Part shown: piece after piece, positions 6,952 to 53,962 of the stretch | How positions within the stretch are numbered: the first letter of the stretch is position 1 | Layout of the letters: each line of letters starts with the position of its first letter | DNA from: an uncultured Verrucomicrobiota bacterium | GTDB lineage: Bacteria > Verrucomicrobiota > Kiritimatiellia > CAIKKV01 > CAITUY01 | Length of the DNA: 64,000 bases | NCBI GenBank assembly: GCA_964584205.1 | Contig: CAZOZF010000002.1 | Location: 160-64,159 of the forward strand | Direction of reading: 5' to 3' | Program-made: the position numbers and the translations under genes | Notes under the pieces: generated by a model | What the model saw: only the letters and a program-made list of their open reading frames with translations | Databases searched by the model: none | What the model was told of the DNA's origin: nothing

Positions 6952-7019
6952 CAGTGTGGGTTATGAGAAAATAGATGACTGAGGACAAGGTTGGTCTTTC
7001 AGCAAGGGGTGGTGAAGAT

Positions 7020-8723: not shown

Positions 8724-8750
8724 CAGGGATTCGATAGTCCTTCTTCTGGT

Positions 8751-8797
8751 GTGACCCGATTCACCCGAAAAAAGACCTAAACCGCTCTCTTCAGGGG
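8751..8797 (+). promoter_or_regulatory. conserved upstream motif copy A (gtgacccgattcacccgaaaaaagacctaaaccgctctcttcagggg)
   Basis: ~64 bp upstream of the start of the 2427-aa gene. Confidence 0.5.
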
Positions 8798-8861
8798 AAA
8801 TAGGAAGTGGGAGAATATTCAGATGAAGATAAATTGATATTTTTTTTGAGTCAGGGGGGGT

Positions 8862-11800: not shown

Positions 11801-14800
11801 TACCGTTACCGTGGGTGCCGGGAATACTTTAACAATCGCAAACGGGGGTATCCTCAAGACGGGTAGTAATGCCTCGTCAATTAGTGGCGGAAACGCAATT
11901 TCGCCTACTGTTGAATTAGTGGTACGCACAGATACCAGTAGTGATGCGCTGACGATCAGCACGCCGGTTACAGGATCGCAGGCTCTGACCAAATCTGGCG
12001 CCGGCACAGTGACATTTTCCGGCGCGAACACCTACAGCGGCGCGACCAAGGTCGATGCGGGCACTCTTCTGGTGAACAATACGCATATTGTCAACAGCTC
12101 GACTGAAGCTTACACCGTGTTGAACGCTGCCACGCTGGGCGGTAGTGGTCAAATTAAATTGAATCAGGTTATCACCGTCAACAGTGGCGGGTTCCTTGCC
12201 CCTGGTAACGGGCTCAATTCGTCGCTGAAAATTGATGGTGGTACCAAGGCCACCGCGGGACTTCTTACCATGTCCTCCGGTGCGAAGTTCAGCTTTTCCT
12301 TGGATGCCACCGGAGCGGGTAACCCGACCATGCTGGACTTCTGGAATTACGCGGCTAACGATTTAGCGCTCAACAGCAACGTGGTCAACCTCACGCTTTC
12401 CGGGAATCACACGCCGGGCACTTACACAAATAGCATTTTTCGCTTCTACAGCGACACGGGCAGCTCGGCGACCCCCCACGGTATCAGTTCCGGCCTGACC
12501 ATTGGTACCGTGGATTCCGGCATCTCCTCGCCCTCCATCATCTACAGTGCAAATACGATCGACGTCGCCTACACGATCCTGCCCGGGGCGGCCGATGCGA
12601 TGCGATCGACCCTGACGCCGACGAGTGCGAGTATCACGGCCAATGGGATAGCCTCACAGATCTTGACCGTTCAGGCGAAAGATTCCTACGGCAACTACCT
12701 GACCTCTGGCGGCGCGACCGTGACGATCACGAAATCCTCCGGTACGGGTACGATTGGTAGCGTGACGGACAACAACAACGGCACCTATACGGCGACGGTG
12801 ACTGCGCCGGAGACCACGGGTAGCGGCGTCTTTGTGGCGACATTGGGTGGGGACCAGGTCAAGAGCGGAGAAGGTAGCCAGACGCAGGCGGCGGTCTCCT
12901 ATGTCTCTGGCCCGGCGGATCACCTTACGATCACCTCTTCGATCTCTGGCCTGATCGCTGGCGATACGAGGGAGATTACGGCTGAAATCCGGGATGGAAC
13001 CGGGAATCTGTGCACGGGAGATTCGACCTCGGTTCATTTCTCGCAGTCGGGTGCTGGTAGCGTCAGCGGTCTCCCCGCCGATGTGGCGGCCGTTTCCGGC
13101 ATTGCGACCCAGCAGGTTACAGGCAGTGCTGGGGGTTCAGTTACCATCACCGCGCATGTGGACGGGTTGACTGATGGCAGCACGACATTCACAGTGCTCC
13201 AATCCTCGGCAAGCGCCTATTCGATTCAGGTTTCTGGGAGCAGCAGTGCGACCACGGCGGCAGGCAGTGGCGTGCATCTGACGGTGATTGCACTGGATGG
13301 CTCCGGCAACACGATGACCGATTTCGACTCCGACAAGGCCCTTTCGTTCTATGGACTGGTCAGTTCCCCGAACAGCACGGCGCCGACGGTCACCGACAAG
13401 AATGGCGTCGCAAGATCGGTCACATCCACGGTCGGTTTGCCCAACACCACGCTCACATTTGTCGATGGCGTGGCGGATGTGGGTGGCGTAGATAATCCGG
13501 TGCTAACGGCGTATAACGGAATCAGCTCAGCGGTGATGTTGCATTGCTCGGATGGAACTAAGAGCACGGAAAGTACCCATGGCTCTGGCTTGAGTTTAAC
13601 AGTTAATCCCGCCAGTGCGAGCACGCTGACGGTGAACGGGTTCCCAACCTCCGCAACGGCGGGAATACCGGGCGATGTGACGGTGACGGCCAAGGATCCC
13701 TATGGAAACACAGACCCAAGTTATGCCGGAACAATCACATTCACCGTTGGGGTGGCTGATACCGGGAAGACAGTTCCGTCCGACTTTACGTTTATACCGG
13801 CCACGCACAATGGAGCGCATGCGTTTAGCGGTGGTGTGACACTCACGAAGGCAGTCACTGGCGGCGGCCAGTCGATCATTGCGACGGACAAGAATGCCGG
13901 GAGCATTAACGGGACACAAAGCGGTATCACGGTCAATCCCGGTACGGCGAATATGCTGGCACTCGATTCGGGGGACGGGCAGCTCGGGAGCGGGTCGGCG
14001 GCTCTTGCCAGTCCCTTCGTGGTAAAGGTGACTGATGTCTACAACAATCTGGTGCCGGGCGTCACGGTTGATTTTGCGGTCTCAACGTATCCTGCGAGTG
14101 CGACGGGGCAAGCGTTGAGCCCCGCGAGTCCCGCCACAGGTAGTGATGGCAAGGCGTCCAGCACTCTAACCTTGGGAGACAAGCAGGGGGCCTATACGGT
14201 TACTGCGACGGCCTCCGTTCCCAACGGTAGCCCCGTGACCTTCACCGCCACCGCCGCGCCGATAGGATCTGTGATCAAGGCTGGTACGGGAACCGACCTT
14301 GCGGCCGTCGGAAGTTGGGATGGTGGTGCCGTGCCGGGTTCCGGCAACAAGGCCTATTGGTCGAGTGCTTCACTCGGCGCAAATCTGACACTGGGTTCCT
14401 CTGCGTCGTGGGGGAGCATCACAGTTGAGGGCGCCCTAACAGACATCGGTATCACCGGGGCGGGTACGCTCACGCTCGGCGAGAACGGCATCGATCTGTC
14501 GGCATCCCCAGTCAATCTTTCGATCGGAAACCCTATCACGCTTGGAGCCGCCCAGACATGGGTCGTGAACTCGGCTAAGACGTTGACGGCATCGGGAATC
14601 GTCGGTGGAAGCGTGGCTAGCGCACTGGTCAAGGACGGCGCGGGCACGCTTACCCTATTGCATACCAACACGTACGGTGGTGATACGACGATCAGCAACG
14701 GAACGTTCGAAATCGGCGGCGCGGGTCAATTGGGTGGCGGAACGTATACCGGTGCCATCACGAACCACGGCCTATTGCGAGTGAACAGTTCCGCCAGTCA

Positions 14801-25259: not shown

Positions 25260-26849
25260 ATGAAAAAAATCGGGATGTCGGCCTTGCTAATGTTAATGAG
25301 CCTGTCGGCCTATGCCGACGTAACCTTGCATGGATTATTCACGGATCACATGGTCCTTCAGCGCGCCATACCGGTTTCGGTCTATGGCAGGGCTGAACCA
25401 GGAGAGAAGGTGACCGTCTCCTTTTCTGGCCAGGTGAAATCCGCCATTACGGATAAAGATGGCAATTGGGCCATCAGGCTTGACGCGATGAAGGCCTCAA
25501 CGAACTCTGCCATAATCAGCATTGTCGGGAAAAACAAACTGGTCCTCAATAATGTGGTTGTGGGGGACGTCTGGATTTGTTGCGGTCAGTCCAATATGGA
25601 ATTCCTGCTGGGGCATTGTGGGCGGCCGGATGACGTCAAGGAAGCTGACTACCCGCTAATTCGGCAGTTCTCCGTGCCTCACGATTTTGCCGGGTACCGG
25701 AAGACGGATGTCAAGGGCAGTTGGATGACTTGTACGCCCAAGACGGCTGGAAACTTCACTGCGGTAGGTTATTATTTCGCCCGAAAAATTAACCGCGAAA
25801 CCGGCATTCCGATTGGACTGATCAGGAGCGTGTCGAGCGGGACATCCATTGAGCCTTTCTGCTCTGCGGAAGGATTGGCTTCCATTCCCGAACTGGCGGA
25901 AGAAAAGGGGCGGCTTGATAAAACGATGGTGGAATACCGTAACAATGTGTCGAATACCCTTTCCAAGCTGGAAATCTATATCGCGGATGTGCGCAAAGCC
26001 CTCGCTGGTAATACGGTATTGCCCGATGCGGTCCAGATTCCCGGGAATCCTGGAACCGGCCCCTGTAGCTGGCTTTGTGTTTATAATGGCATGATTCACC
26101 CCCTCATCAACTTCAGGATCAAGGGGGCGCTCTACTATCAGGGTGAGACCAACGGCAGTGAGGAAAACGGATATTTTCACAAAATGCGCGCGCTTATCGG
26201 GGGCTGGCGCAAAGCATGGAACCAGGGCGACTTCCCGTTTTATTTCGTTCAGCTTCCCAACTACAGCAATCCTGTAAGCCGTCCGGACGGTGGTGATGGT
26301 TGGGCCAAAACCCGTATGGGCCAGTTTAAAACACTGGCTGTCACCAACACCGGGATGGCGGTAACGATCGAATTGGCCGACGTTGGTAACCCCGGCAATG
26401 TTCATCCCACGAATAAGCGGGATGTGGGTGAGCGTCTGGCGCTCTGGTCCCTTGCCAAGGACTACCCTGCGACGACGCTCAAGTCAGGTGGCAAGGCGGC
26501 CGATCTCGTCTACAGCGGTCCATTGTATAAGGAGATCAAGATCGAGGGCGGTAAGATCCGTGTCATATTCGGGAGTGTCGGTTCCGGGCTGATTGTGGCT
26601 ACCAAGAAGGGGTATGAGCCCGTGGTCAAGGATCCACAGGGCAAGCTCCAGAGGTTTGCCATTGCCGGTGAAGACAAGAAATGGGTTTGGGCGGATGCCG
26701 TTATCGAGGGTAAGACCGTCGTGGTTTCCAGCCCTGAAGTTCCCCGGCCGGTAGCGGTTCGCTATGCCTTCTCAACTAATCCTGATGGCTGCAACCTTTA
26801 CAACAACGAAGGTCTGCCGGCCTCTCCGTTCCGTACGGACGAATGGTAG
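25260..26849 (+). CDS. sialate O-acetylesterase-like (DUF303/SASA, SGNH-type) carbohydrate esterase
   Basis: Signal peptide MKKIGMSALLMLMSLSAYA; hallmark GDVWICCGQSNMEF block of the 9-O-acetylesterase family; ORF-track start 25230 moved to the signal-peptide Met. Confidence 0.8.
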   Translation: MKKIGMSALLMLMSLSAYADVTLHGLFTDHMVLQRAIPVSVYGRAEPGEKVTVSFSGQVKSAITDKDGNWAIRLDAMKASTNSAIISIVGKNKLVLNNVVVGDVWICCGQSNMEFLLGHCGRPDDVKEADYPLIRQFSVPHDFAGYRKTDVKGSWMTCTPKTAGNFTAVGYYFARKINRETGIPIGLIRSVSSGTSIEPFCSAEGLASIPELAEEKGRLDKTMVEYRNNVSNTLSKLEIYIADVRKALAGNTVLPDAVQIPGNPGTGPCSWLCVYNGMIHPLINFRIKGALYYQGETNGSEENGYFHKMRALIGGWRKAWNQGDFPFYFVQLPNYSNPVSRPDGGDGWAKTRMGQFKTLAVTNTGMAVTIELADVGNPGNVHPTNKRDVGERLALWSLAKDYPATTLKSGGKAADLVYSGPLYKEIKIEGGKIRVIFGSVGSGLIVATKKGYEPVVKDPQGKLQRFAIAGEDKKWVWADAVIEGKTVVVSSPEVPRPVAVRYAFSTNPDGCNLYNNEGLPASPFRTDEW

Positions 26850-30315: not shown

Positions 30316-32385
30316 ATGCAAATTGTGCCTGCGGTTCTCTCTCTTACACTCGTCGGGATCATCGGTGTCGGGTCGACCTTGGGCGCGGCTTCATCGGCGC
30401 CACGTGAGCTTTCCGCGCCGGCGGATATTATCTATGCCAAGGTTATGCCTGGTAGGGCCACCGCCATTCAGTCGGGCCGGAATTTCGTCCTGGCGAACAA
30501 TGTGCTTGAGATGGGGTGGTCGCTGGAGGCCGGGCATTTGCGGCTGACCCGTATTGCGGATCGGATGAACGGACGTTCCTATCTCCAGAGCAATGAGGTG
30601 TTTGAAGTCCAGTTGGATAACCGGACCAGGATTTCCTCGTCCGCTTGCCAGCTTGTAGGATCGCCGACGCTTGAGGTGATCACCCCCGTGTCTGATTCTG
30701 CCTGTGCGGCGATGCATTTAGGTGGCTGGAAGATTGCGGCCCGGTTCAAGCATGAAGCCGCCGGCTTAACGGTTCAATGGAATGCTGAACTCCGGGACGG
30801 GTCGCACTATGTGCGCCAGATTCTCCGTATCGAAGGGGCAAAGGGAACGTTATCCGAGGTCAACTGCCTGGAGACCAACGTCGGGCGGGCATGGAATGAG
30901 GGCTCGGTTTTGGCCGGCAATCCCGTATGCAATGATCATCTGTTCATGGGCCAGGAATTGCCGATGTCGAAGAATGTGGTGAAGAGTGGGGTGCTTTCTG
31001 GCGATTCCGGAGCGGTTTCATGTGGCTTGTCCTGCAAGCTTCCGCTTCAGACCGGCAAGGCGTATGAGTTTTCGTCAGTTCTGGGCGCTTATCCTGAAGG
31101 GCAACGTCGCCGTGCCTTCCTGCGGTACCTGGAGCGTGAACGGGCCCGGCCTTATCGGCAATTCCTGCACTATAATTGCTGGTTCGATCTTCACATCAAA
31201 CTCAATGAGCAGGATATCTTGAAGAACGTCCAGGCATTTACCGAGGAAATGACGGTCAAGCGGGGAGTTGCGATGGATTCATATGTGTTGGATGACGGGT
31301 GGGACAATCCACGTGAAGGATTCTGGACGATTGACAGGAAGAAATTCCCGTCGGGATTTGATACGGTTACGTCGGAGCTGGACCGTGTGAATTCGCACAT
31401 GGGCATCTGGATATCACCGTTGGCCGGGTATGCCTTCATCGGGGAGCGGGTGGAGCATGCCAGTAAGCTGGGCCTGGTGCGTGCAGGTTCGTTTCTTGAT
31501 CTGTCATATGCTCCGTACTACGAGTGGTTCAGGGATTTCTGCGCAAACATGGTGAAGACCAATAAGGTGAATTATTTCAAGTGGGATAAGGCCGGCGAGG
31601 GGGCTTCGCCGCATTTCATGGCCCTCCTGTCATGCGCCCGGGAATTACGTCAAATTGACCCCAATCTCTTTTTCAATGTTACCGTGGGAACCTGGGCGTC
31701 GCCGTTCTGGTTGAATGTGATCGATAGCACCTGGCGCGGTGGGGAGGATGTTGGCTGGGACTGGACTTGTAAGGGGAATGACCGCGAGAAATGGCTCAAT
31801 TACAGGGATGGTGTGACCTATCGGAATGTGGTCAAGGCAGGGCCTCTCTATCCCTTGAATTCGATCATGAATCATGGAATTGTCCATGCGTCACTGGGTG
31901 CGGCGGGACGTGCGGCCGGCACGGGAACGGATCTGCGCAATGAGGCGCGTTCATATTTCGGGTCGGGAACAGCGCTTCAGGAGCTGTACATCCAGCCGAG
32001 CATCATGACGTCCCAGGCGTGGGACACCGTGGCGGCAGCGGCGAAGTGGGCGCGTCTGAATGCCGATGTCCTGGTGGATACGCACTGGGTGGGCGGGGAT
32101 CCCACTAACCGCGAGATTTATGGCTGGGCGTCATGGACGCCGCAGAAGGCGACTCTCACTTTGAGGAATCCGGATGACCAACCGCGTGAGATCACGCTGG
32201 ATGCCGTTGAGGTGTTTGAATTGCCCTCATTTGCCGCGAAGGATTATGTAATGACGAGCCCCTATGCGGATCAACGGATCCAGAAGGTGGAAATGAAGGC
32301 CGGAAACCCAAGCGTGTACTCGCTTCAGCCTTTCGAAGTGCTTGTGCTGGAGTCTAGTCCAACGAAGGATAAATATATCAGATAG
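30316..32385 (+). CDS. secreted clan GH-D-like glycoside hydrolase (paralog of 1342..3489)
   Basis: aggag RBS; signal peptide; FLRYLERERARPYRQFLHYNCWFD...YVLDDGWDN; C-terminal blocks shared with 1342..3489. Confidence 0.6.
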   Translation: MQIVPAVLSLTLVGIIGVGSTLGAASSAPRELSAPADIIYAKVMPGRATAIQSGRNFVLANNVLEMGWSLEAGHLRLTRIADRMNGRSYLQSNEVFEVQLDNRTRISSSACQLVGSPTLEVITPVSDSACAAMHLGGWKIAARFKHEAAGLTVQWNAELRDGSHYVRQILRIEGAKGTLSEVNCLETNVGRAWNEGSVLAGNPVCNDHLFMGQELPMSKNVVKSGVLSGDSGAVSCGLSCKLPLQTGKAYEFSSVLGAYPEGQRRRAFLRYLERERARPYRQFLHYNCWFDLHIKLNEQDILKNVQAFTEEMTVKRGVAMDSYVLDDGWDNPREGFWTIDRKKFPSGFDTVTSELDRVNSHMGIWISPLAGYAFIGERVEHASKLGLVRAGSFLDLSYAPYYEWFRDFCANMVKTNKVNYFKWDKAGEGASPHFMALLSCARELRQIDPNLFFNVTVGTWASPFWLNVIDSTWRGGEDVGWDWTCKGNDREKWLNYRDGVTYRNVVKAGPLYPLNSIMNHGIVHASLGAAGRAAGTGTDLRNEARSYFGSGTALQELYIQPSIMTSQAWDTVAAAAKWARLNADVLVDTHWVGGDPTNREIYGWASWTPQKATLTLRNPDDQPREITLDAVEVFELPSFAAKDYVMTSPYADQRIQKVEMKAGNPSVYSLQPFEVLVLESSPTKDKYIR

Positions 32386-32421: not shown

Positions 32422-32733
32422 ATGAGAAGCATAGTGTTGTCATTAATGATTGGTACTTTGATCCAATCCGTTGCCGCCAGGGAAGTGACGAATATCGATG
32501 CCGGCAAGGAGATGGTGGGGGCTATTGATTCCTGGAACAAGATTTTTGGACAGCGCGGGATCGCGGTGACCGAATATGGCGCGGGTGCCAGCATCTATCA
32601 CCATGTTGAGGAGCCTGGGCATCCGTATTCAAATGGCATGTGGCATCAAGGCGATAACGAGGTTCAGGTTCAGGGTGGCGCGGGTAAAAATCAATATACC
32701 GATAGAGCTGTTTTTAGGGTGAATCAGGAATAG
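32422..32733 (+). CDS. small secreted hypothetical protein (103 aa)
   Basis: gagga RBS-like sequence upstream, N-terminal signal peptide MRSIVLSLMIGTLIQSVAA, fits exactly between flanking genes; no recognisable domain. Confidence 0.45.
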   Translation: MRSIVLSLMIGTLIQSVAAREVTNIDAGKEMVGAIDSWNKIFGQRGIAVTEYGAGASIYHHVEEPGHPYSNGMWHQGDNEVQVQGGAGKNQYTDRAVFRVNQE

Positions 32734-32766: not shown

Positions 32767-35700
32767 ATGACCAAGAAATCATTGTTATCCAACATCTTTC
32801 TGATGGCTGTTTGCCTCCTGCTGGTTGTCCCTGCCGATCTCCGCGCCACGTGGTACGGGGAGAATGTGGCAAACGGTTCAGATGTCATGATGATGGATGT
32901 GTGTTGGCCGTTCTGGCCGGAGAGCACCTATTCCGCAATCTGGAATTTCGGGACCAATCCCACGGGGATCGGTGGTTACGGCGGGTTTGCCAATGGGATT
33001 CCGTCAGTTCCTCCGGATCATCGCCCCAATTTGGATCCCGCGGTCCAGGCGGCATTTCATCCCGGCTCCGTGTGGTCATTTTGGGGTGGGAACAAGGACG
33101 GTGAGCCCGTCCGTGTCGTCGCCTCGTCGGAATACACCTATCCCCGCCAGTATGTCGTCGAAGGCGCCAGTGGTTCACTGGGAGGTTATGGCTGGCCGTT
33201 CATGAAGAACGGGGAGTGGTACACCATGATGATGAAGATATGGGAGCCGGTGGGGGTGACGAATGACCAGTACTCCTATATTGGCCGCTGGATCAAGGAC
33301 ATCGCCACCGGGAAGTGGTACCTCTATGGCATCGTGCGTTTGCCTGTGCCGGGGACATCTTTCAATAGTAATAACGGTTTCCTTGAGGATATTGGAAATA
33401 GTGGCCGGTCGGTACGTTCCTTATACCGGCGGCTAGGGTACTGCCGCAAGGATGGGACGTGGCGTTCATCGAATAAGGTAACCATTAATGTGGATCCCAA
33501 GAACGGTCAATTTGATAATTATTGGGTGGTGGAGGTCAAACCGGAAGGGGATCACGAGATCCTGGCGATGGAGCTGTCGTGGAATAAGGCGTTGATGCCG
33601 TTCAAATTGTCCGGAGCACCATTGGCCTTTAAATCGAAAAATGAATTCACGGTCAAGCAGCCTGCGGCGCCGTCGCTCGACAAGCCGCAAGTGGCTTCGG
33701 TGTCAGCCGAGTCCAATGGCCGACAGGTGTTGGTGAAATGGGAGCTTGCGGCTACATCCTCCCCTCAGTTTCTCTATCGCATTGAGGTCTTCAATAATGT
33801 CGCTTGCCAAGGGGTGCCCCTGGTTGTCAGGCAGGAACGGATGCCCATCGTGAACACCGTTCTGCTTGATGCAGTTGTGGCGAAGCCCACCGTGCGATTC
33901 ACCCTGACGGATGTGTTCGATCAGGCCATCACCCCCATGGTGGTAGCGGTCAAAGCCGCCGCCAAGCCGTCTCCATCGACTACGGCTACCATGGCGACAG
34001 GATTGGGTTATGAGCTGCTGCACAAATTTAAGGGGAATGATCGGTTGCTGCTCAAGGATTTTGGCGGCGGGGAATTGTTCCAGAAGGGAATTGCGCGCGG
34101 GTTCGATACCTCGCTGGCCAGTGCGTTGGGCAAGCGTTACGCCTTCCGTTTCAAGGGGTTTTTGCGGGCGCCCGCCGATGGATTATACGTGCTGAGGATG
34201 CAGGGCACTGATGGATACAGTATCGCTGTTGATGGGAAGGAAACATTGGTCTGGGATGGCCCACATGGGCCTGCCGAACGCTCTGGTTTCATGAATCTGG
34301 CAAAAGGTGATCACTCCCTGGCGGTGGACTATTTTGTCGATCAGGCGTCATCGCCATTCTTCAAAATGGAGTGGGAAGGGCCTGGCCTGGCCCGACAGGA
34401 AATACCCGTATCGGCATTGATGCACCAGGATGCCGGCCAAACACCTGTAGCGACGCTGACAACCTTCGGCGGTAACAATGGCACCGCCACGCTCAAGGTC
34501 GATGTCAATCCACGGGGCCATGCCATCGCCAAGCTCCAGTTATTTCTGGGAACGATGCAAATTGCCGAAAGCACGGGCGCCGCTCTTGCCTATTCCGGTC
34601 CGATGCTGGAGGGCACCAATACACTCTGGACGCGGGTTACCTATGATGGCAATTGCACGATGGATTCACAGCCGCAGAACCTGGTGGTCAAGGGAACTCC
34701 GATTCAAGGCGGGTGGACCATGTCGGTGGTTGGTGAATCCAAGGCGGTGAAGGGCTTGTGGCAGACCGCGCCAGATGCCTTTTCCTTTATAGGAGAAGGT
34801 GAATATGTCGTGACTCGCCGTATCACCGGCGATTTTACGCTGACGTGCCGGCTTGATTTCTGGTCTGGTGAGAAAGGGGAGCGGGTGAACGGGTGGTCTT
34901 GGGTTGGGCTTACGGCAAGGGAAAAGGGCAAGGAACGTTGGTGGGGTCAGGAGTTCGGCATTTACCAGATGGCGCAGTGTGGGTTGCGTACAACCCCTGA
35001 TTTTAGCGATCAGGGTGCTAGCCGCATCAGTAGTTACGCGTTGCCGAAGGGGCATCCATGGTTGCGGATGGTGCGCAGGGGGCAGGTCTGGACGGCCTGG
35101 TCCTCGGCTGATGGCGAAATTTGGGAGTTAGGGGCAACCCACCTGAAGCCTGCCTCGGAGGGGATGGATGCCGGTTTGGTCTTCCGCGTATTGCCGCAAG
35201 ATGCCCAGGCGTATTTCCAGGCGAAGGTATCTTGCCTCAAACTTGAAGCCGGTGTGGCTAAGGATTCGGTGTTCCCGGGTTCTGTCCCGGCCACTCATAC
35301 TGATGGGCCCCGTTGGACCGGTGTCGTGATGGCGCGTTCCGATGCCAACATCGTCGTGTTGCGTTCCTCAGAGAAGGGCTTGCTGCGATCGTCTGATGAC
35401 GGGAAGAGCTGGTCGTCCGCCAACGGCAACTTGAGTGGCGCCGCCAATGCGGTTCGTAGTGTTGCCATTCATCCGAAAGATCCGCAGATCATGTATCGCG
35501 CCGCCGGATGGGTCGGAGATTCCGGGGCATGGGAGGGTGGTTTATGGAAGTCAACGGATGCGGGGCTTAATTGGAAGAAGCTCGATTTCCCAGGCGATTT
35601 TGATGGCGTGGGGCCCTCTGCCCTTTGCGGTGAGGTTGTCGCTTTCGATCCCGAAAAGCCGGAGACGGTTTATGCCGGATGTGAGACCAAGGGCTTGTAC

Positions 35701-36372
35701 CGGAGTGAAGATGGCGGTGTCAAATGGACCAAGCTGGGGATTGAGAACGAACGCATCACAGCCGTGGTTCTATGCGGATGGATTCGCGGCGAGAATGGCC
35801 TGCCGCGGATACATGCCGTCACGTGTCCTGACGCCTTGATGACGCTTCTGGGGCGCGGCAAGCCGGCGTTAGCGGCATCCGTCAAGACCGCGCATGATTA
35901 CGTCAGCCTCAACGGAGGGAAAAGTTTGTGGCCGGTTGGTGAATGGAGCGAAGTAGGTTATCTGAATGTCGCCTTCGATAAAGGTTCAGCGGATGAACCT
36001 TCCTATGCCACCACGCATGGGTTTTGCATGTCGCTCAAAAACCGCTATATGTTCCTGTTTCCCGCAGCTAAAAACATGGAGACTTTACGGCCAGTCACGG
36101 CGGTTGCCAGTTCGGGGCGCGGGGATACCCGGTGCGGTCGGGCCCTGCTGCAAGCGCTGAATCCAGTTAAGTCGGGCCGACTGTCGCGTAGTGACGAATA
36201 CGGCTTGAAGTGGAACTGGATCGAGACGCGCGGTGATATTCCGCAGGGCGGCTACATTGCGTTTAGCGGGGAATACGTCAAGGGCGAGCACTGGTGGTTA
36301 CTGGCAACGGATGGACTATACCGATCCAAGGATGGCGGAAAGACGTTGACGAAGGTGATGGGTGAACGATGA
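32767..36372 (+). CDS. large secreted multidomain protein (1201 aa): N-terminal domain of unknown function + PA14 domain + C-terminal BNR/Asp-box beta-propeller (candidate novel glycosidase/glycan-binding protein)
   Basis: Signal peptide; PA14-like block (FKGFLRAPADGLYVLRMQGTDGYSIAVDGKETLVWDGP...DHSLAVDYFVDQASSPFFKMEWEGPG); four Asp-box repeats (LRSSDDGKSWS, WKSTDAGLNWKK, YRSEDGGVKWTKL, YRSKDGGKTLTKV). Confidence 0.7.
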   Translation: MTKKSLLSNIFLMAVCLLLVVPADLRATWYGENVANGSDVMMMDVCWPFWPESTYSAIWNFGTNPTGIGGYGGFANGIPSVPPDHRPNLDPAVQAAFHPGSVWSFWGGNKDGEPVRVVASSEYTYPRQYVVEGASGSLGGYGWPFMKNGEWYTMMMKIWEPVGVTNDQYSYIGRWIKDIATGKWYLYGIVRLPVPGTSFNSNNGFLEDIGNSGRSVRSLYRRLGYCRKDGTWRSSNKVTINVDPKNGQFDNYWVVEVKPEGDHEILAMELSWNKALMPFKLSGAPLAFKSKNEFTVKQPAAPSLDKPQVASVSAESNGRQVLVKWELAATSSPQFLYRIEVFNNVACQGVPLVVRQERMPIVNTVLLDAVVAKPTVRFTLTDVFDQAITPMVVAVKAAAKPSPSTTATMATGLGYELLHKFKGNDRLLLKDFGGGELFQKGIARGFDTSLASALGKRYAFRFKGFLRAPADGLYVLRMQGTDGYSIAVDGKETLVWDGPHGPAERSGFMNLAKGDHSLAVDYFVDQASSPFFKMEWEGPGLARQEIPVSALMHQDAGQTPVATLTTFGGNNGTATLKVDVNPRGHAIAKLQLFLGTMQIAESTGAALAYSGPMLEGTNTLWTRVTYDGNCTMDSQPQNLVVKGTPIQGGWTMSVVGESKAVKGLWQTAPDAFSFIGEGEYVVTRRITGDFTLTCRLDFWSGEKGERVNGWSWVGLTAREKGKERWWGQEFGIYQMAQCGLRTTPDFSDQGASRISSYALPKGHPWLRMVRRGQVWTAWSSADGEIWELGATHLKPASEGMDAGLVFRVLPQDAQAYFQAKVSCLKLEAGVAKDSVFPGSVPATHTDGPRWTGVVMARSDANIVVLRSSEKGLLRSSDDGKSWSSANGNLSGAANAVRSVAIHPKDPQIMYRAAGWVGDSGAWEGGLWKSTDAGLNWKKLDFPGDFDGVGPSALCGEVVAFDPEKPETVYAGCETKGLYRSEDGGVKWTKLGIENERITAVVLCGWIRGENGLPRIHAVTCPDALMTLLGRGKPALAASVKTAHDYVSLNGGKSLWPVGEWSEVGYLNVAFDKGSADEPSYATTHGFCMSLKNRYMFLFPAAKNMETLRPVTAVASSGRGDTRCGRALLQALNPVKSGRLSRSDEYGLKWNWIETRGDIPQGGYIAFSGEYVKGEHWWLLATDGLYRSKDGGKTLTKVMGER

Positions 36373-36396: not shown

Positions 36397-36684
36397 ATGC
36401 ATAAGCAGTGGATGATGGCGGTTCTGTTGTTGGCAACCAAGAAAGGCTATGACCCTGTGGTTAAAGATCCACAGGGCAAATTGCAGAAGTTTGCCATTGC
36501 CTGGGAAACCCGGAAATGGGTGTGGGCGGATGCCGTTATTGATGGGGTGACCGTGGTGGTCTCCAGCCCTGAAGTTCCAAAGCCCGTGGCCGTGCGGTAT
36601 GCGTTCACCATGAACCCCGACGGGTGTAACCTTTATAATAACGAGGGACTCCCCGCTTCCCCATTCCGAACCGATAATTGGTAA
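36397..36684 (+). pseudogene. remnant of a sialate-O-acetylesterase gene (C-terminal 84 codons only)
   Basis: nt 36433-36684 are ~80% identical to 26601-26849 (3' end of gene 25260..26849); encoded ATKKGYDPVVKDPQGKLQKFAIA...VAVRYAFTMNPDGCNLYNNEGLPASPFRTDNW matches the esterase C-terminus; no catalytic domain upstream. Confidence 0.7.
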
Positions 36685-40989: not shown

Positions 40990-43900
40990 GTGATGTCTAC
41001 TGGAAATTCGAGCCTGTCGGGTGTGATTGCGCTGTCGGTATTGTTTCTGCTGGCTGTTCATGGTGATGTCCGTGCGGAAAAGGTTGAGCACTGGAAGCAT
41101 ATTAATGTTGAAGACGAGTTGTGGACGAATGCCGGCGGAGCGGGAGACGGTCTTCTGGGTTTTGGCGAATTCATGATTTATTCCGGAGCTACCTTTGACC
41201 AGACGGGGGGGCGAATTGGCAGTGTTACTAATTGGGGTGCCCCGGTCGCTTCCATTGGTTGGAGCACCGGTGGTTCATACAAGATGTCGGGTTTGGCTAT
41301 ATTTACAACGGCTACGGATGTAGTACTTGGTCATGCCAAGAGTGGGGGCCAGGTTGCGGGCTGGAGTTTAACCGACATCGCCAGCGCTACGCTGGGGGGT
41401 GCCCTGGATTTCCGTGACGGTGCCGCGAATCACCTTCTTCTTGGCGGGGCGGCCACTTTTCGCGCGGGAAGCCTTCGCGGGTTGGATCGCGACGGTGAAT
41501 ACATCAGCTTTGCCTGTGGCGCTACAGCCTCCCAGGCCACGCTTACGATTGGATCCCGGGATCAGTCCTACTATGAGGATTTGGTTTCCAAAGGGTACAT
41601 CCGCATCAATCGAGTGAAGCAAACCAACTTCAGCAAGTTTCAAGTCAAAGGCAGTACGTTGTCGCTGGTCCCGCTGTCCATGAGGCTGGCGATTACCTCC
41701 GTTAATGGCGGATCTAGCCCCAGTGCTGGCGACGGCTTTGATGTGACCGTTCAGGTTCTGGATCTGAATAATGCTCCGGCCAAAGTCGGTGCGGATAGGG
41801 TGGTGACGCTCATGCGTAAGGCCGGTAGCGGCATTTTGGATGGGACAACCAATATTACCATCGCGGCAGGCTCCCATACGAAAAAAATCAGCGGAGTGAC
41901 CTACACCAAGGCGGAAAATGGCGTGGTGCTCACCGCCTTGTGTGACGGAGTGGGGGATGGCGACAGCCCAACCTTCACGGTCGCGGCGGGGACTCCCAGA
42001 AAGCTGGTGTTCTGCGCCCAGCCGGAGGCGACAGTGCTGGGGTGGCCGATCAGTCCGGTCGTGACGGTTCAGATTCAGGATGCCAATGGCAATACCGTGG
42101 TCGGCGAGTCCCGCCGCGTGACGATCAGTAGCTCTACAACCGCTTTCTCCGGCGACAGTATCCTCGCCACGAATGCCGTCGAGGGTGTGGCGAATTTTAG
42201 CGCGCTCAAGCCAGTCCGGATCGCCAGTTCTAACATGCTGGTGGCCAGCGTGGGTTCGCTGGCGGGGGCGACCTCCCGCACCTTCGCCGTCTCTTCGGAT
42301 TGTGTGGCTCATGCCTCGCCGGAAAAGTGCGCACAGTTCAACGCCTTTAAGGAGATCCCCATCAACTCCATTACCCCCAAGGGGTGGTTGCGTGAATTTC
42401 TGGTTCGGCAAAATACAGGACTCACGGGAAACCGTGAAATATTGTCCTACCCGTTCAACACCTGTCTTTGGGCCGGCCGCATCCCGTACAACGGGAACGG
42501 CGACGACTGGTGGCGCTACGAACAAACCGCTTACCTGACCGACGGGATGCTCCGGCTCGGCTATCTCATCCGCGATGACAAGCTCATGCAGGCCGGGCGT
42601 GACGGCGTGGCGTATGTGCTCGCGCATCCTATGGAAAAAGGCCGCCTCGGCCACCCCTTTTTCACCAGCCAGTGGCCGATGGCCGTTTTTTTTCGTGCCA
42701 TGCAGGCCGAATACTCAGCCACCACTGATCCCAAGCTCCTGGAGGCGCTTCGCCAGCACTACCTTTCCTTTTCAACCGCGGAGTTGCGCGGGGGGCGGAA
42801 TGTCATCAACGTTGAGGGCATGCTTTGGACATACGGCAAGACCGGTGATCGCAAGCTTCTTAATCGCGCGAATGCGATCTACGATCAAGGGCAGGGTATA
42901 TGGGGCAGAGGTGCTCTGGGCGCGCCAGGAAAGGATGTTGAGCATGGAGTCACCTACAATGAAATGGCGAAACTGCCGGCGATCTTCTATGCCTACACCG
43001 GCAACAAGGACTATCTGTCCGCCTCAGTCAACGCCTTCAGGAAGCTGGATCGTGATCACATGCTGCCCGATGGAGTTCCCAGTTCCAACGAATTCCTGGC
43101 GGGAAAGGATATTCACCAGAGCCACGAAACCTGTGACATTTCGGATTATACATGGAGCGTCGGCTACCTCTTGATGGCCACCGGCGACGCTGCCTGGGCA
43201 GATCACATCGAAAAGGCCATTTTCAATGCCGGGCCCGGTTGCGTTTCCAAGGATTTCAAGAACCTCCAATATTTTTCTGGCGTTAACCAGGTCATCGCGA
43301 CGGGCGACTCTAATCACAACAAACATTTCCATGGTTCCACCTGGATGGCCTACCGTCCTTGTCATGAGACGGAATGTTGTGCTGGCAATGTGCACCGTTT
43401 CATGCCCAACTACGCTGCCCGCATGTGGATGAGCGATACCAATGGCGGGCTTGTGGCGACACTTTATGGACCGTCGTCAATGACGCTGCCGATCAATCAA
43501 GGGCGACAACAGCTGACCGTCACAGAAAACACGGGCTATCCTTTTTCCGAAACCATTACCTTCACGTTCAACACACCGACTCCTGTCGAGATGCCATTTT
43601 CGTTCCGCATTCCCGGGTGGTGTGTAGCCCCGTCGGTTATAGTCAACCAGCGGCCCTATTCGGGTCAGCTCACCCCTGGCGCCTTCACCACCCTGAGCCG
43701 GACCTTCCGGAATGGCGATATCGTCACGTTGCGCCTGCCCATGCCTTTGAAACTAATTAAGTGGGAAAACCAAGGGGTTGCCGTTGAGCGCGGTCCTCTG
43801 CTTTTTGCCTATCCGGTGCCCGAGAAGGTGACGGAGGATACCCGGACTTATGCCAATATGCGCGGTAAGAAATCGTCTGACCCGGTCAATTTCCCGGCCC

Positions 43901-44193
43901 TTGATATTAGGCCTGATGGGCCATGGAATTACGCGCTCGCGGCAAATTCCGCCGCTGACCTCAAGTTGGTGACGAATGAATCCAATGGTTATCCGTTCGA
44001 TCCTGGCGCCAGTCCTCTGGTCATCAAGGTGCCTGCCAGGAAGGTCAAGGGGTGGAGCTTGGTTGAGGACCGTTACACGCCGCCGTTGCCGGACCGTGAC
44101 AAGGTTGAGTGCGAGGCGGCTGTGGAAACCATTACCCTCGTCCCGTATGGTAGTACGCGATTGCGAATTGGGGTTTTTCCTGTGGCACGGTGA
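40990..44193 (+). CDS. secreted GH127-like (DUF1680, beta-L-arabinofuranosidase-type) enzyme with N-terminal Ig-like domains
   Basis: Signal peptide; Big/invasin-like Ig domain (PEATVLGWPISPVVTVQIQDANGNTVVGESRRVTISS); DUF1680 core with the Glu-Thr-Cys (HQSHETCD) and Cys-Cys (HETECCAGN) motifs corresponding to the HypBA1 Zn/nucleophile site. Confidence 0.75.
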   Translation: MMSTGNSSLSGVIALSVLFLLAVHGDVRAEKVEHWKHINVEDELWTNAGGAGDGLLGFGEFMIYSGATFDQTGGRIGSVTNWGAPVASIGWSTGGSYKMSGLAIFTTATDVVLGHAKSGGQVAGWSLTDIASATLGGALDFRDGAANHLLLGGAATFRAGSLRGLDRDGEYISFACGATASQATLTIGSRDQSYYEDLVSKGYIRINRVKQTNFSKFQVKGSTLSLVPLSMRLAITSVNGGSSPSAGDGFDVTVQVLDLNNAPAKVGADRVVTLMRKAGSGILDGTTNITIAAGSHTKKISGVTYTKAENGVVLTALCDGVGDGDSPTFTVAAGTPRKLVFCAQPEATVLGWPISPVVTVQIQDANGNTVVGESRRVTISSSTTAFSGDSILATNAVEGVANFSALKPVRIASSNMLVASVGSLAGATSRTFAVSSDCVAHASPEKCAQFNAFKEIPINSITPKGWLREFLVRQNTGLTGNREILSYPFNTCLWAGRIPYNGNGDDWWRYEQTAYLTDGMLRLGYLIRDDKLMQAGRDGVAYVLAHPMEKGRLGHPFFTSQWPMAVFFRAMQAEYSATTDPKLLEALRQHYLSFSTAELRGGRNVINVEGMLWTYGKTGDRKLLNRANAIYDQGQGIWGRGALGAPGKDVEHGVTYNEMAKLPAIFYAYTGNKDYLSASVNAFRKLDRDHMLPDGVPSSNEFLAGKDIHQSHETCDISDYTWSVGYLLMATGDAAWADHIEKAIFNAGPGCVSKDFKNLQYFSGVNQVIATGDSNHNKHFHGSTWMAYRPCHETECCAGNVHRFMPNYAARMWMSDTNGGLVATLYGPSSMTLPINQGRQQLTVTENTGYPFSETITFTFNTPTPVEMPFSFRIPGWCVAPSVIVNQRPYSGQLTPGAFTTLSRTFRNGDIVTLRLPMPLKLIKWENQGVAVERGPLLFAYPVPEKVTEDTRTYANMRGKKSSDPVNFPALDIRPDGPWNYALAANSAADLKLVTNESNGYPFDPGASPLVIKVPARKVKGWSLVEDRYTPPLPDRDKVECEAAVETITLVPYGSTRLRIGVFPVAR

Positions 44194-49591: not shown

Positions 49592-51823
49592 TTGAAAATG
49601 GTTTTGCTAGCAGGGATGTGCGCGTGTGTTGGCGTGGGTGGTGTTTCTGGCTCGAGCCAGGCGATTCCGTTTCCGGAGGCGTTGCAGGATGCCGCGATGT
49701 CGGTTGCCAAAATGACGGACGGGCAAAGCGAAGGACTGATTGTCGGCAACGGCGACCTGTACGGGGTGGTCTGGGAGAAACAAGGCGGGCTTTTCCTGCG
49801 GATCACCCGCAATGAGATCTGGGACGCGCGGCTTGATACTTCAAAAGATGGTCCTATTTCCCGGGTGAATGTCCGATCCCGGGCGGTGACTGGTACGACG
49901 GGCGCTCCGCCAAGTTATGGCTCTCCTTATCCCCAGCCACGGTGTGCGGCCGCTATCCGAATCGGGGGTGCGGCGCCGGCGCTCGCTAAAGGGGATGTGG
50001 ATTTGCGGCGGGCGGTCATGACGGTGACGTCCGGCAACAGCAAATGTACCGAGATCCGGGCCCTGGCCGACCGGAATGTAATGCTTATCAATACGGCAGG
50101 CAAGGTGGCGATAGAGGAGATCCTTTCCGGAACCCTGCCCCGGGCCAAGGCCGGAACCACCGACGGTGTCGCCTGGCTGCATATGGTGATGCCCGGGGAT
50201 GTCGACTATAAGGGGATGGAATACAGTGTCGCGGTGGCAGGTGATGGGCGGATGAAAACCGTTTCACTTGTCACATCATTTGACGTAGCTACAGGGGATG
50301 TGTGCCGTGCCGCGATTGCCTTGGCCACCAAGACGCTCGACGAGGTGAACAAGAGCCCGGACGCGTTGATCGCGAAGCATGAGGGGGTTTGGGTTGATTA
50401 CTGGGCCCGCAGCGGTATTGCGCTGGCGGATCGGGACTTTCAGCGTTGGTGGTACCGGATGTTGTATTTTGCGCGGACCATCTGTCAGCCCGGTGGCCGG
50501 TTCCCGCCGGGCCTGATGCCACCTCTGGTAACGGATAACACACCTTGGCATGCGGATTTCCACTTCAATTACAACTCATGGCAGCCGTTCTGGTCGGTTG
50601 TTTCGGCGAATCATGCTGACCTTGCGGATTCGTGGCTTACCTACGTTGATGGATTGTTGCCGCGGGCGCAGTGGCAGGCCAGGGAAATCTATGGCTGTGA
50701 CGGGGTCTTCTATTCGATTTCCCAGTATCTGCACGAACCGGATCCGGCCATCTGTAAGAGTGTCAACAAGCGGGCCGGACCGATGAATCCGTGGGGAATG
50801 ACCATCGGTATGGTGGGAATGACGGCCCAGAGTCTGTGGCACCGGCACCTGTGCGATCCGGATCGCGCCATCCTGGAAAAGAAGATCTACCCGACGTTGA
50901 GGGAAGCGGCGCGGTTTTATGTTTCCTTCATGAAGCAATGCGGCAGGGATGCGGATGGGAAAGTCTTGCTGGGGCCATCGTACAGTCCTGAGCATGGTAA
51001 TATGGGTATCGACAATTGTCCCTTTGATATTGCCTATGTTCATTACACGTTTGAGGCCTTTTGCAAAGCCGCCCGTGAGCTGGGTAAGGATCCGGCGCTG
51101 GTGGCAGAGTGCCAGGACATGAAGACGCTTCTTTCCGAATACCCTGTGGCGTTGGATGCCCAAGGACAACCGGTTGTCGTGGACTGGCGAGGCTGTAAGT
51201 ACAAAGAAGTCCCCATTCATAATCTGACCGTTCCGGCGGCGCCTGTGTTTCCCGGCGAGCAGGTGACCTGGTTCTCTCCGGAGCCGGTCAAGGAGTTGTT
51301 TCGCCGCACCATTCGTGACACCCGGTTCAATGGCAATAATTCACACGTCATATTTAATATTGCCAAGGCCCGTTTATCCATGCCTGAAGCGTTATCTGAT
51401 GCCCGGCAATGGTTTAAAAGCCGGGAGCTGCACAATGGTCTGTTCGTTTGGCAGGGACATGAGCATGGGACTTTTATGACGGAAAGCATCGGGGTTACGG
51501 CGCTGGTAACCGAATTCCTGATGCAGAGTGTGGGGGATATCATTCGGGTCTTTCCTTGTTGGCCGAAAGACCAGCCCGCTTCGTTCCGCCAATTGCGGGC
51601 GCAGGGCGGCTTCCTTGTGTCTTCCAGTCAGCAGGCGGGCAAGGTGGTTATTCTGGAAATCACCTCGACCGTCGGCGGGCGATTGCGGGTGTTGAGTCCG
51701 TGGCCGACGCTTATGGTAAAGTGCGGCCTTGATGGGGCGAAGCTCATGAACCCTGATGCTCAAGGTGTCGTGACGCTGAGTACGCAGCCCGGCGAGCACG
51801 TGGTGTTTGGACCGGCGGAGTGA
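49592..51823 (+). CDS. secreted GH95-like (alpha/alpha)6-barrel glycosidase, divergent from canonical GH95 (paralog 1 of 2)
   Basis: Signal peptide; N-terminal LIVGNGDLYGVVW...RNEIWDARL and the block WHADFHFNYNSWQPFW echo GH95 motifs (GNGRLGAMVFGG; DYHxNINxQMNYW) at low identity; tandem paralog follows. Confidence 0.6.
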   Translation: MKMVLLAGMCACVGVGGVSGSSQAIPFPEALQDAAMSVAKMTDGQSEGLIVGNGDLYGVVWEKQGGLFLRITRNEIWDARLDTSKDGPISRVNVRSRAVTGTTGAPPSYGSPYPQPRCAAAIRIGGAAPALAKGDVDLRRAVMTVTSGNSKCTEIRALADRNVMLINTAGKVAIEEILSGTLPRAKAGTTDGVAWLHMVMPGDVDYKGMEYSVAVAGDGRMKTVSLVTSFDVATGDVCRAAIALATKTLDEVNKSPDALIAKHEGVWVDYWARSGIALADRDFQRWWYRMLYFARTICQPGGRFPPGLMPPLVTDNTPWHADFHFNYNSWQPFWSVVSANHADLADSWLTYVDGLLPRAQWQAREIYGCDGVFYSISQYLHEPDPAICKSVNKRAGPMNPWGMTIGMVGMTAQSLWHRHLCDPDRAILEKKIYPTLREAARFYVSFMKQCGRDADGKVLLGPSYSPEHGNMGIDNCPFDIAYVHYTFEAFCKAARELGKDPALVAECQDMKTLLSEYPVALDAQGQPVVVDWRGCKYKEVPIHNLTVPAAPVFPGEQVTWFSPEPVKELFRRTIRDTRFNGNNSHVIFNIAKARLSMPEALSDARQWFKSRELHNGLFVWQGHEHGTFMTESIGVTALVTEFLMQSVGDIIRVFPCWPKDQPASFRQLRAQGGFLVSSSQQAGKVVILEITSTVGGRLRVLSPWPTLMVKCGLDGAKLMNPDAQGVVTLSTQPGEHVVFGPAE

Positions 51824-51847
51824 TGTAGTCGGAAATTGGAGGTTAGC

Positions 51848-53962
51848 ATGAGGAAACTGGGCATTGGGGCCGTTCTAATAAGTGCCGTTCTGTCGGCGCA
51901 GGGTATGAACTACAGCGGGGTTTTTACCGAGCCGCCGAAAAGTGTTCCAACCTACTACATGCCTGATGGGCCCCTGCTGGGGAACGGCGATGTCGGTGTC
52001 GTGCTGGCAGGTCCACCGGAAGAGCAGCGTTTTTACATCGGCAAGAATGACTGGTGGGGGTATGGCGATGGCTCACGCGCGATGCCGGCCGGCGGATTGA
52101 CGCTTGCGATAACCGAGTTGAAAGGCGCGAGCTACCGGCAGGAACAGGATTTGGCTTTGGCGGAAGTCCGAGGCTCGTTCACCAATGGCGAGGTGGTGGT
52201 GCAGACACGGTCGTTTGTTGATGCCGAGTCCAACCTGCTGATAACGGAAGTGAAGTGCGCCGGGACAAAGCCGGTGACGGCCGTTTTTTCACAGAGAAAC
52301 GGTTTAGATGATCCCTGGGGAACCCGACGGACAAGTATTCCATCCGGCATCCTGTGTTGTACACGGGTGAGCGGGGATGCTCCTCCTGAAAAGAGGATGG
52401 AGATAGGGGTCGTGAGCCGCATCATCGGTGGAGCGCTGGTCGTGGACAGCGCAGGCACAATAACGTTGACCCTCAAAGCAGGCGAAGTCGTAACGATTGT
52501 AACGTGTGTGCTCTCCAAACTGGACGATCCTGGTTTTCTTGAGTCGGCAAAAAAGAAAGTGTCAGCATTGGAGATAAAGGACTTTCGGTCCATTTCAATC
52601 AAGCACAGGGAGTGGTGGAAGAATTTCTGGTCAAAATCGTTTATAGAGATTCCCGATAAGGAGATTGAGAAGCGCTGGTACGCAGCCTTGTATGTGATGG
52701 GGTCTTGTAGCAAGGCGGGGAAGGTCGCGCCCGGGTTGTGGGGGTGCTGGGTCACCATTTTTGCCCAATGGCAGGGCGATTATCACTTGAATTATAATTT
52801 TCAGGCGCCGTATTACATCGTCTATTCCAGTAACCATGCCGATTTGTCAGCCCCCTATTATCGGGCGATCCTGGAGTCGGTGCCTCGAGCCAGAGAGGTG
52901 GCAAGGAAGAACGGGTGGAAAGGCGTGCACTTTCCAGTATGTATTGGTCCCCGGGGTATTTTTCCGGAGGGGGAAAGGGATCATGGACAGCGTTCGAATG
53001 CCGCGTATGTGGCCTTGAATTTCATCTGGCAGTACCAGTATACGAAGGATAAGGAATTCCTGAAGACGACGGCCTATCCGTATCTGCTGGAAGTGGCGGC
53101 ATTCTGGGAGGATTACCTCAAGCTGGAAAACAAACGGTATGTGATCTACAAGGATGCCATCCATGAGGGGTCAGGCGATAACATAAACCCGATTCTCTCG
53201 CTGGGGCTTGTCAGGACACTTTTCACGAGCCTGATATCCATGAGCAAGGATATCGGTGTGGATGAGGCCCGGCGTGCGAAGTGGCAGGACATCCTGGACA
53301 AGCTCAGCGCATTCCCGTTACAGGAGCGCAATGGGAAAACCGTGTTCCGTTATACGGAGAAGGGGTTGGATTGGTGGAAAGACAACACTCTGGGTATCCA
53401 GCATATCTTTCCGTGTGGCACCATCGGCCTGGACAGCGATCCAAAGCTGCTGGAAATCTGCCATAACACAATTGACGAGATGGGGCGTTGGGCTGATTAC
53501 AACGGCTTTTCATCGTGGTATACCGCCTGTGCCCGTATCGGGTACGATCCCAAAACGATCCTGACGAAAATGCGTACGGAGTGTGATAAGCATTCCTTTC
53601 CGAATCTCCTGCTATTTTATGGTGGTGGCGGAATAGAGAGTTGTGGTGGCTTTCTGGCGATCAACGAGATGTTATTGCAGAGCCATGAGGGTGTGCTCCG
53701 CTTTTTCCCTTGCTGGCCCAGGGATCAGGATGCCCGCTTTGGGACGCTGCGCGCTGTGGGTGCCTTCCTTGTCAGCGCCGAGCTGAAGAATGGCGTGGTC
53801 GGCGGCGTGAAGATCATCAGTGAGAAGGGGGCCGATTGTACCGTGCAGAACCCCTGGCCCGGCAAGAAGGTGACCATCTCCGGCCGGAAGCCGCTTGAGG
53901 GCGCGCGGTTCACGTTCAAAACCAAGCCGGGCGAAATCATGGAATTGCGGCCGCAAACATGA
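51848..53962 (+). CDS. secreted GH95-like (alpha/alpha)6-barrel glycosidase (paralog 2 of 2)
   Basis: ggagg RBS 5 nt before the ATG at 51848 (the ORF track began at an upstream TTG, 51836); signal peptide MRKLGIGAVLISAVLSAQG; LLGNGDVGVVL...KNDWWGYGDG, WQGDYHLNYNFQAPYY; colinear with 49592..51823. Confidence 0.6.
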   Translation: MRKLGIGAVLISAVLSAQGMNYSGVFTEPPKSVPTYYMPDGPLLGNGDVGVVLAGPPEEQRFYIGKNDWWGYGDGSRAMPAGGLTLAITELKGASYRQEQDLALAEVRGSFTNGEVVVQTRSFVDAESNLLITEVKCAGTKPVTAVFSQRNGLDDPWGTRRTSIPSGILCCTRVSGDAPPEKRMEIGVVSRIIGGALVVDSAGTITLTLKAGEVVTIVTCVLSKLDDPGFLESAKKKVSALEIKDFRSISIKHREWWKNFWSKSFIEIPDKEIEKRWYAALYVMGSCSKAGKVAPGLWGCWVTIFAQWQGDYHLNYNFQAPYYIVYSSNHADLSAPYYRAILESVPRAREVARKNGWKGVHFPVCIGPRGIFPEGERDHGQRSNAAYVALNFIWQYQYTKDKEFLKTTAYPYLLEVAAFWEDYLKLENKRYVIYKDAIHEGSGDNINPILSLGLVRTLFTSLISMSKDIGVDEARRAKWQDILDKLSAFPLQERNGKTVFRYTEKGLDWWKDNTLGIQHIFPCGTIGLDSDPKLLEICHNTIDEMGRWADYNGFSSWYTACARIGYDPKTILTKMRTECDKHSFPNLLLFYGGGGIESCGGFLAINEMLLQSHEGVLRFFPCWPRDQDARFGTLRAVGAFLVSAELKNGVVGGVKIISEKGADCTVQNPWPGKKVTISGRKPLEGARFTFKTKPGEIMELRPQT

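Follow-up and report, generated by a model that had tools for sequence, protein, structure and literature searches.

The gene at positions 32767..36372 (+ strand) of a 64,000-nucleotide stretch of DNA from an uncultured Verrucomicrobiota bacterium (contig CAZOZF010000002.1), the whole of which is referred to here as the window, was analysed. Its open reading frame (ORF), checked in the window sequence, starts with an ATG that has a Shine-Dalgarno-like GGGAG a few bases 5' of it, and encodes 1201 amino acids (aa). Judged from its sequence and relatives, the chances are about even that the product, called the target below, is a multimodular glycopeptidase-like enzyme which would act on densely O-glycosylated substrates. 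On the evidence of residue conservation, the active site would most probably lie in the N-terminal DUF3472 module, in which a glutamate pair is kept. If the target is an enzyme, its closest characterised relative, HC7, is one that cleaves the peptide bonds of O-glycoproteins and not glycosidic bonds. A preliminary description of this DNA had proposed a secreted 1201-aa protein with a PA14 domain and a propeller, and both the ORF position and these modules were confirmed. It had left the first ~280 aa as an unknown module; this did not hold, as the region is Pfam DUF3472 (PF11958), for which solved structures exist, and an Fn3-like domain then precedes PA14.

The DUF3472 module and its glutamate pair

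The relation of the N-terminal unit to HC7 was analysed at the level of sequence and structure. The Pfam search placed PF11958 at residues 30-245, its 43.9 bits exceeding the gathering score of 24.8. The PDB search with the single target sequence retrieved the DUF3472 domain-containing protein entries 8PN5, 8PMU and 8PN3 (E 4e-17), and the search with the target-family profile gave HC7 at E 1.4e-32 over profile positions 33-391. Foldseek matched the HC7 entries to the N-terminal unit of the target with a template modelling (TM) score of 0.83, and the beta-sandwich and Fn3-like fold of the HC7 catalytic unit was found. HC7 is reportedly the di-glutamate mucinase of Bacillus cereus K8, from the work of Narimatsu et al. 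(Nat Catal 2024;7:386). The PDB titles list an 'HC7 apo form' and, for 8PN3 and 8PN5, an HC7-Glu200Ala mutant complexed to a tri-/tetraglycopeptide, which fixes Glu200 as functionally critical in HC7. That substrate capture called for the E200A mutant implies that wild-type HC7 turns over its substrate. The parts of the target gene that correspond to this unit are as follows.

32848..33657, + strand: DUF3472/HC7-type beta-sandwich, proposed catalytic module (residues 28-297)
33658..33966, + strand: Fn3-like domain, part of the HC7-like two-domain unit (residues 298-400)
33160..33162, + strand: codon of E132, proposed second catalytic glutamate, aligned with HC7 E131 (HC7 GGEGTG, target VEGASG)
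33298..33300, + strand: codon of D178 (in WIKD), conserved acidic residue, aligned with HC7 D170
33385..33387, + strand: codon of E207, equivalent of HC7 Glu200 (alignment of FQEDW with FLEDI)

The residue equivalences between HC7 and the target were counted along the family-profile alignment. E132, D178 and E207 are invariant in 42/42 members of the target family, at identities down to 31%, and the conservation of Asp/Glu catalytic candidates across homologs, which the preliminary description had named as a check, is borne out by these three positions. A wider DUF3472 set of 83 more distant sequences was taken from 153 matches among 1.84 billion representatives, together with the HC7 fragment. 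E207 is present in 80/83 of them, the remaining 3 being gaps, and the residue that follows it varies; D178 is kept in 78/83 and E132 in 77/83, HC7 included. Among 20 conserved positions checked in this set, E132 and E207 are the only near-universal glutamates. Two such glutamates, one of them the substrate-trap residue of HC7, fit a di-glutamate catalytic pair in which E132 would be the second member. The DUF3472 module is also the most densely conserved part of the target, with many conserved Trp, Tyr and Arg residues, and R221, R222 and several N-terminal Trp are specific to the target family as compared with the wider set.

In the proposed mechanism, the target would be exported via Sec and its catalytic centre would be the DUF3472 and Fn3 unit, a relative of HC7. 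The carboxylates of E207 and E132 would together provide water activation and protonation of the leaving group, and a peptide bond beside O-glycosylated residues in a mucin-like or proteoglycan-like stretch would be hydrolysed. Conserved Trp, Tyr and Arg side chains would line the cleft that holds the attached sugars, the candidates being W47, W50, W59, W103, W106, W151, W175, W184, W232, R217, R221, R222 and R227. The PA14 domain, the LamG/DUF1349-like module and the single propeller resembling glycoside hydrolase (GH) family GH74 would be non-catalytic and, by analogy with carbohydrate-binding modules (CBMs), may bind glycan or position the extended substrate. Exo-glycosidases encoded in the surrounding gene island would trim the glycan side chains, after which the backbone-cutting enzyme could act.

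Several points weigh against this mechanism. The identity with HC7 is just 23-26%, and the ~1200-aa family is known from sequence and model alone. E132 as an HC7-type second catalytic glutamate and the residues assigned to sugar binding are candidates, and the pairing of E132 with E207 was placed by alignment and conservation. The PF11958 protein BPSS1860 is known solely as a surface attachment factor (PMC7998038). The neighbourhood is not conserved, and the island is therefore weak evidence, that is, guilt by association; its GH78, GH127 and GH43 enzymes point to rhamnose- and arabinose-containing plant or algal glycans no less than to mucin-type O-glycans. The fold is also similar to that of GH16 glycanases, and cleavage of a glycosidic bond by these two acidic residues is therefore conceivable.

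This last point leads to a different enzyme, considered here as unlikely, in which the DUF3472 module would be an endo-acting glycoside hydrolase or transglycosylase with E132 and E207 as acid/base and nucleophile in the style of a GH16-type beta-sandwich. A polysaccharide would then be cut and subsequently debranched by the exo-glycosidases of the island. The likeness to GH16 glycanases is at the fold level only (7-9% identity).

The invariance of E132, D178 and E207 down to 31% identity and their retention in the wider DUF3472 set form a pattern typical of catalytic residues, which makes a purely binding function improbable. In such a function the target would be a lectin or adhesin, secreted or at the surface and without catalysis, whose modules, DUF3472 among them, would all bind glycans only; it might, for example, attach cells or enzymes to glycoconjugates of algae or animals. 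The role of BPSS1860, the PF11958 namesake, as a surface-located attachment factor (PMC7998038) speaks for it, as do the PA14, LamG and BNR propeller modules that adhesins commonly carry and the observation that the family gene is usually stand-alone, with no enzyme partners. The turnover by wild-type HC7, implied by the need for the E200A mutant, speaks against it.

Modular architecture and the C-terminal propeller

The glycopeptidase-like reading assigns a binding or positioning role to the remaining modules, and their arrangement was analysed on an AlphaFold2 model of the mature protein built with an alignment of 42 homologues. The model has a mean predicted local distance difference test (pLDDT) value of 92.6 and a predicted TM score (pTM) of 0.85, with no segment under pLDDT 50. 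Its secondary structure resolved six modules, the signal peptide being excluded; the boundaries are approximate and given in full-length numbering. The pTM across the six modules suggests a fixed multidomain assembly in the predicted structure. The features other than the N-terminal unit are listed below.

32767..32847, + strand: predicted Sec signal peptide (residues 1-27), with a KK n-region, a hydrophobic core and the junction LRA/T, by sequence inspection
33967..34434, + strand: PA14 domain (residues 401-556; Pfam PF07691, PDB PA14 matches 6QDI and 6QE7)
34435..34701, + strand: Ig-like beta-sandwich linker (residues 557-645), all-beta in the model
34702..35262, + strand: LamG/DUF1349-like concanavalin-type beta-sandwich (residues 646-832), sub-threshold Pfam DUF1349
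35263..36369, + strand: seven-bladed Asp-box beta-propeller, single GH74-type lobe (residues 833-1201)
35389..35412, + strand: Asp-box 1, SSDDGKSW (residues 875-882, regex match)
35551..35574, + strand: Asp-box 2, STDAGLNW (residues 929-936, regex match)
35704..35727, + strand: Asp-box 3, SEDGGVKW (residues 980-987, regex match)
36325..36348, + strand: Asp-box 4, SKDGGKTL (residues 1187-1194, regex match)

The N-terminus, MTKKSLLSNIFLMAVCLLLVVPADLRA followed by TWYGENV, has the n/h/c layout of a Sec-type signal, and the conservation among homologues starts exactly at TWYGENV, residue 28. The PA14 domain was already recognised in the preliminary description, and Pfam placed it above the gathering score at residues 457-547 (PF07691, 33.6 bits vs a cutoff of 24); the PDB PA14 entry 6QDI was found at E 1.5e-18 with the target-family profile. 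The middle region described earlier as ~350 aa is present; it measures about 290 aa and, instead of being a single stretch, resolves into the Ig-like and LamG/DUF1349-like domains. The Ig-like domain gave a weak match to the bacterial Ig domain 9KVU and is the least conserved module of the target. Pfam DUF1349 (PF07081, listed for several homologues) remained sub-threshold at residues 728-805 (E 5e-4), and the conserved residues of this module are D689, R741, D748, R753, R767 and R770. No named GH family has the architecture of the target, as had been stated from the sequence.

The propeller is modelled with high confidence as one propeller of 369 residues, with 28 strands forming 7 blades, and the earlier call of a propeller therefore agrees with the predicted structure. 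The four Asp-boxes reported for it all fit S-x-D-x-G-x-x-[WLFY], of which 0.09 were expected and a maximum of 2 was seen in 5000 shuffles; only 2/4 fit the stricter form S-x-D-x-G-x-[ST]-[WL]. Pfam Sortilin-Vps10 was found at residues 872-992 with 33.9 bits against a cutoff of 33. Conserved polar residues (R897, H902, R911, D944, D946, E956, E973, R996 and D1022) occur outside the Asp-boxes, and because of them the propeller likely binds a ligand. The proposal that the C-terminus is a catalytic or glycan-binding propeller is plausible in its second half, while catalysis is unlikely for the reasons given next.

In GH74 enzymes the substrate cleft lies between two tandem 7-bladed propellers and the catalytic Asp is in the first blade. 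This Asp is D70 in C. thermocellum Xgh74A and D60 in PoGH74. D70 was pinpointed from ARADIGG in 2CN2 compared with ARAAIGG in the mutant 2CN3, and it aligns with S868 of the target; the column holds S/T/P/A/V/Y in 42/42 target-family members. The PDB alignments of the target propeller span just one GH74 lobe. A GH74 xyloglucanase was ruled out on these grounds, since the target has a single lobe and none of the 42 homologues has the catalytic Asp. GH33-type sialidases are marked by six blades, a FRIP motif, an Arg triad and a Tyr/Glu nucleophile. The FRIP-type motif [FYW]R[IVL]P was absent from the target, and the sialidase matches in the PDB cover single Asp-box stretches of ~30 residues at E >= 6e-4; a sialidase-like propeller with 7 blades, no FRIP and matches confined to Asp-boxes was likewise rejected. 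The NCBIfam family NF045728 (F510_1955 family glycosylhydrolase) was discarded at 61.8 bits against a curated cutoff of 175. It is thus highly improbable that catalysis resides in the Asp-box propeller, as it would in a new sialidase-, GH74- or GH143-like glycosidase family with accessory N-terminal modules, and similar single Asp-box propellers, Ycf48 and DAIP, are non-enzymatic binders.

Genomic context and distribution of the family

The target gene lies within a one-strand array from about 5907 to 59266, roughly 50 kb, which is rich in exo-glycosidases. The array starts with two AraC/XylR-type regulators and two PATR surface proteins, which may be the sensor and surface-binding components of the island; at 4646-16145 the regulators form a divergent pair followed by PATR/invasin/Big_1 surface proteins of 582 and 2427 aa. 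GH95, NPCBM+GH110-like, NPCBM+GH78+GH43, SASA esterase, NPCBM+GH78 and divergent GH36-like genes then precede the target, in this order. It is followed by NPCBM+GH27, GH36, GH127-like, GH2, dehydrogenase and aminotransferase genes, and after these by two distant GH95-like proteins, GH2+F5/8C and a GDSL esterase.

Several genes of the array and its surroundings deserve separate mention. The 689-aa secreted protein at 30316-32385 (+) belongs to the GH27/GH36 clan as a divergent member; its Melibiase match is sub-threshold (E 3e-6, 26.7 bits vs a cutoff of 27), and it is 62% conserved in locus L075. The protein of 1067 aa at 40990-44193 (+) has GH127-like domains at residues ~600-920 only, its N-terminal 600 aa being without Pfam at E <= 1. 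A Zn-dehydrogenase and a class I/II aminotransferase precede, inside the glycosidase array, the tandem GH95-like proteins at 49592-51823 and 51836-53962 (+), for which the catalytic-domain E is about 1e-27 with partial coverage. The 714-aa ORF at 1342-3489 (-) is without a significant Pfam family (best Melibiase, E 0.016) and adjoins URO-D-like and GFO/IDH/MocA oxidoreductase genes.

The borders of the target gene were also inspected. In the 336-bp gap on its 3' side, positions 36424-36683 repeat directly, over 260 nt, the 3' end of the SASA esterase gene (26589-26848), with 77% identity in DNA and 85% across the last 86 residues; public pipelines annotate this copy as a gene of 89 aa. This gene remnant shows that a duplication or rearrangement once took place at the 3' border of the target. 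On the 5' side, the 381-bp gap contains a 103-aa ORF (32422-32733, +) whose N-terminus, MRSIVLSLMIGTLIQSVAA, resembles a signal peptide and which includes the stretch 'AVTEYGAG'. Neither a Pfam match nor a paralogue in the window or the fetched loci was found for this ORF, which may represent a small gene or else a remnant. Pfam searches of the small flanking ORFs and unassigned regions returned no matches, and the promoter and terminator scan around the target gene gave nothing exceeding shuffle expectation.

The embedding of the gene among glycosidases, noted from the sequence, is true of the window and the closest relatives and does not extend to the family. In a tblastn comparison with 84 loci, island genes were found only in the closest relatives (L006, L008, L075, L065 and L076). 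The four family loci read in detail carry unrelated neighbourhoods, and the Pfam census of the 86 nearest neighbours gave 98 families with at most 5 loci each, and no conserved partner gene. As the family has no conserved neighbourhood, the glycosidase island is taken as local context and nothing more. The closest relative, L005, has GH109 upstream of its family member.

A recurrent, minority link of the family is that with GH95-type enzymes, found as neighbours or fusions in roughly 10 family loci. CBM32-GH95 lies directly downstream of the family member in L032, L033, L036 and L041, and protein P0099 is a family member fused C-terminally to CBM32 and a GH95 N-domain; P0067 is fused to a GH130/GH43-like module. 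In several metagenome-assembled genomes (MAGs) of Verrucomicrobiales an ORF of ~1040 aa lies 93-135 bp downstream (L032:4248-7394, L033:7279-10383, L036:5523-8669), which matches the GH95 protein of the window over 123 residues, probably in the F5/8C region.

The homologous-protein search gave 129 proteins at 31-80% identity; almost all are 1180-1260 aa long and carry the same set of Pfam domains. Their records read 'hypothetical' or 'PA14 domain-containing', which agrees with the uncharacterised status assigned earlier to this ~1200-aa family. A cultured carrier is Anaerohalosphaera lusitana (AQT69176.1, WP_146662749.1). The scan of GTDB representative genomes gave 143 relative loci with the whole architecture conserved, the best match being a lake Akkermansiaceae MAG at 77%. 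Among the matches listed, nearly all loci are MAGs labelled Verrucomicrobiota or Planctomycetota, with a few other labels, and those MAGs come from lakes, ponds, rivers and the ocean. The identical target protein is present in runs SRR12261226 and SRR12261227.

Two observations concern single records. Five MAGs titled 'Akkermansia muciniphila' with environmental-looking isolate codes (L035, L037, L038, L066 and L082) carry family members at 45-48% identity, and these labels may be mis-assigned for other Verrucomicrobiota. P0110 is called as 741 aa with DUF3472 and PA14 only, and the tblastn match L010:10001-13669 covers query residues 1-1171; if the two share one contig of 68,134 bp, this would suggest a frameshift, pseudogene or assembly error in that MAG.

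A more specific form of the glycopeptidase-like reading, itself rather doubtful, is that of an environmental counterpart of gut mucinases. The target would then be a rigid six-module glutamic glycopeptidase, with a degenerate GH74-like lobe and the LamG-like and PA14 modules as a composite glycan-reading platform, with which aquatic Verrucomicrobiota and Planctomycetota would cut the backbones of non-mammalian, densely O-glycosylated proteins. Algal or plant arabinogalactan-protein or extensin-type glycoproteins and the mucus of invertebrates and fish are example substrates. A dedicated bacterial backbone-cleaving enzyme for such substrates did not surface in the limited literature searched; the DUF3472 literature search returned centipede-venom and virus papers only, and that on DUF5077, BACCAC_02064 and 4QHX returned nothing functional. 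If the family is active, glycoprotein backbone cleavage would be a widespread step of aquatic carbon turnover beside glycan trimming, and the di-glutamate class would gain a new type of modular design, one that has recruited a GH74-type lobe no longer catalytic. Enzymes that cut O-glycoprotein backbones are useful tools in glycoproteomics.

Comparison with known systems

The first description of di-glutamate glycopeptidases is said to date from 2024 and to concern a Bacillus enzyme whose study used human-type mucins. HC7 (8PMU, 8PN3, 8PN5; PF11958) has 659 aa, compared with ~1200 aa for the target family with its PA14, Ig, LamG-like and GH74-like propeller modules. The hosts also differ, HC7 being from Bacillus and the target family from aquatic Verrucomicrobiota and Planctomycetota, at 23-26% identity. 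HC7 itself carries CBM5 (PMC13003899). BPSS1860 of Burkholderia pseudomallei, which gives PF11958 its current Pfam name, is a surface-located attachment factor with an attachment/virulence phenotype (PMC7998038); it shares the Pfam family and a secreted or surface location with the target and is likened to it via family membership only.

The GH74 xyloglucanases (3A0F, 2CN2, 6MGJ) have two lobes and a catalytic Asp, whereas the target has one lobe and the Asp is replaced. The glutamic peptidase neprosin (7ZVC, 7ZU8) resembles the target, as the GH16 glycanases do, in the beta-sandwich at the fold level only, at 7-9% identity. The gut M60-like mucinases (BT4244, HC11) offer an analogy, as the same multimodular secreted glycopeptidase logic is proposed for the target. 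In these enzymes CBMs position extended substrates, and they act after the trimming of O-glycans by exo-glycosidases (PMC13003899). They are zinc metallopeptidases whose catalytic fold and chemistry are unrelated to the target, and the Pfam search of the target gave no M60 domain. The kind of catalytic module, HC7/PF11958, is thus already known; what is new is that a single GH74-like lobe has been recruited into an architecture of ~1200 aa, that this occurs mainly in Planctomycetota and Verrucomicrobiota, and that its habitat is aquatic.

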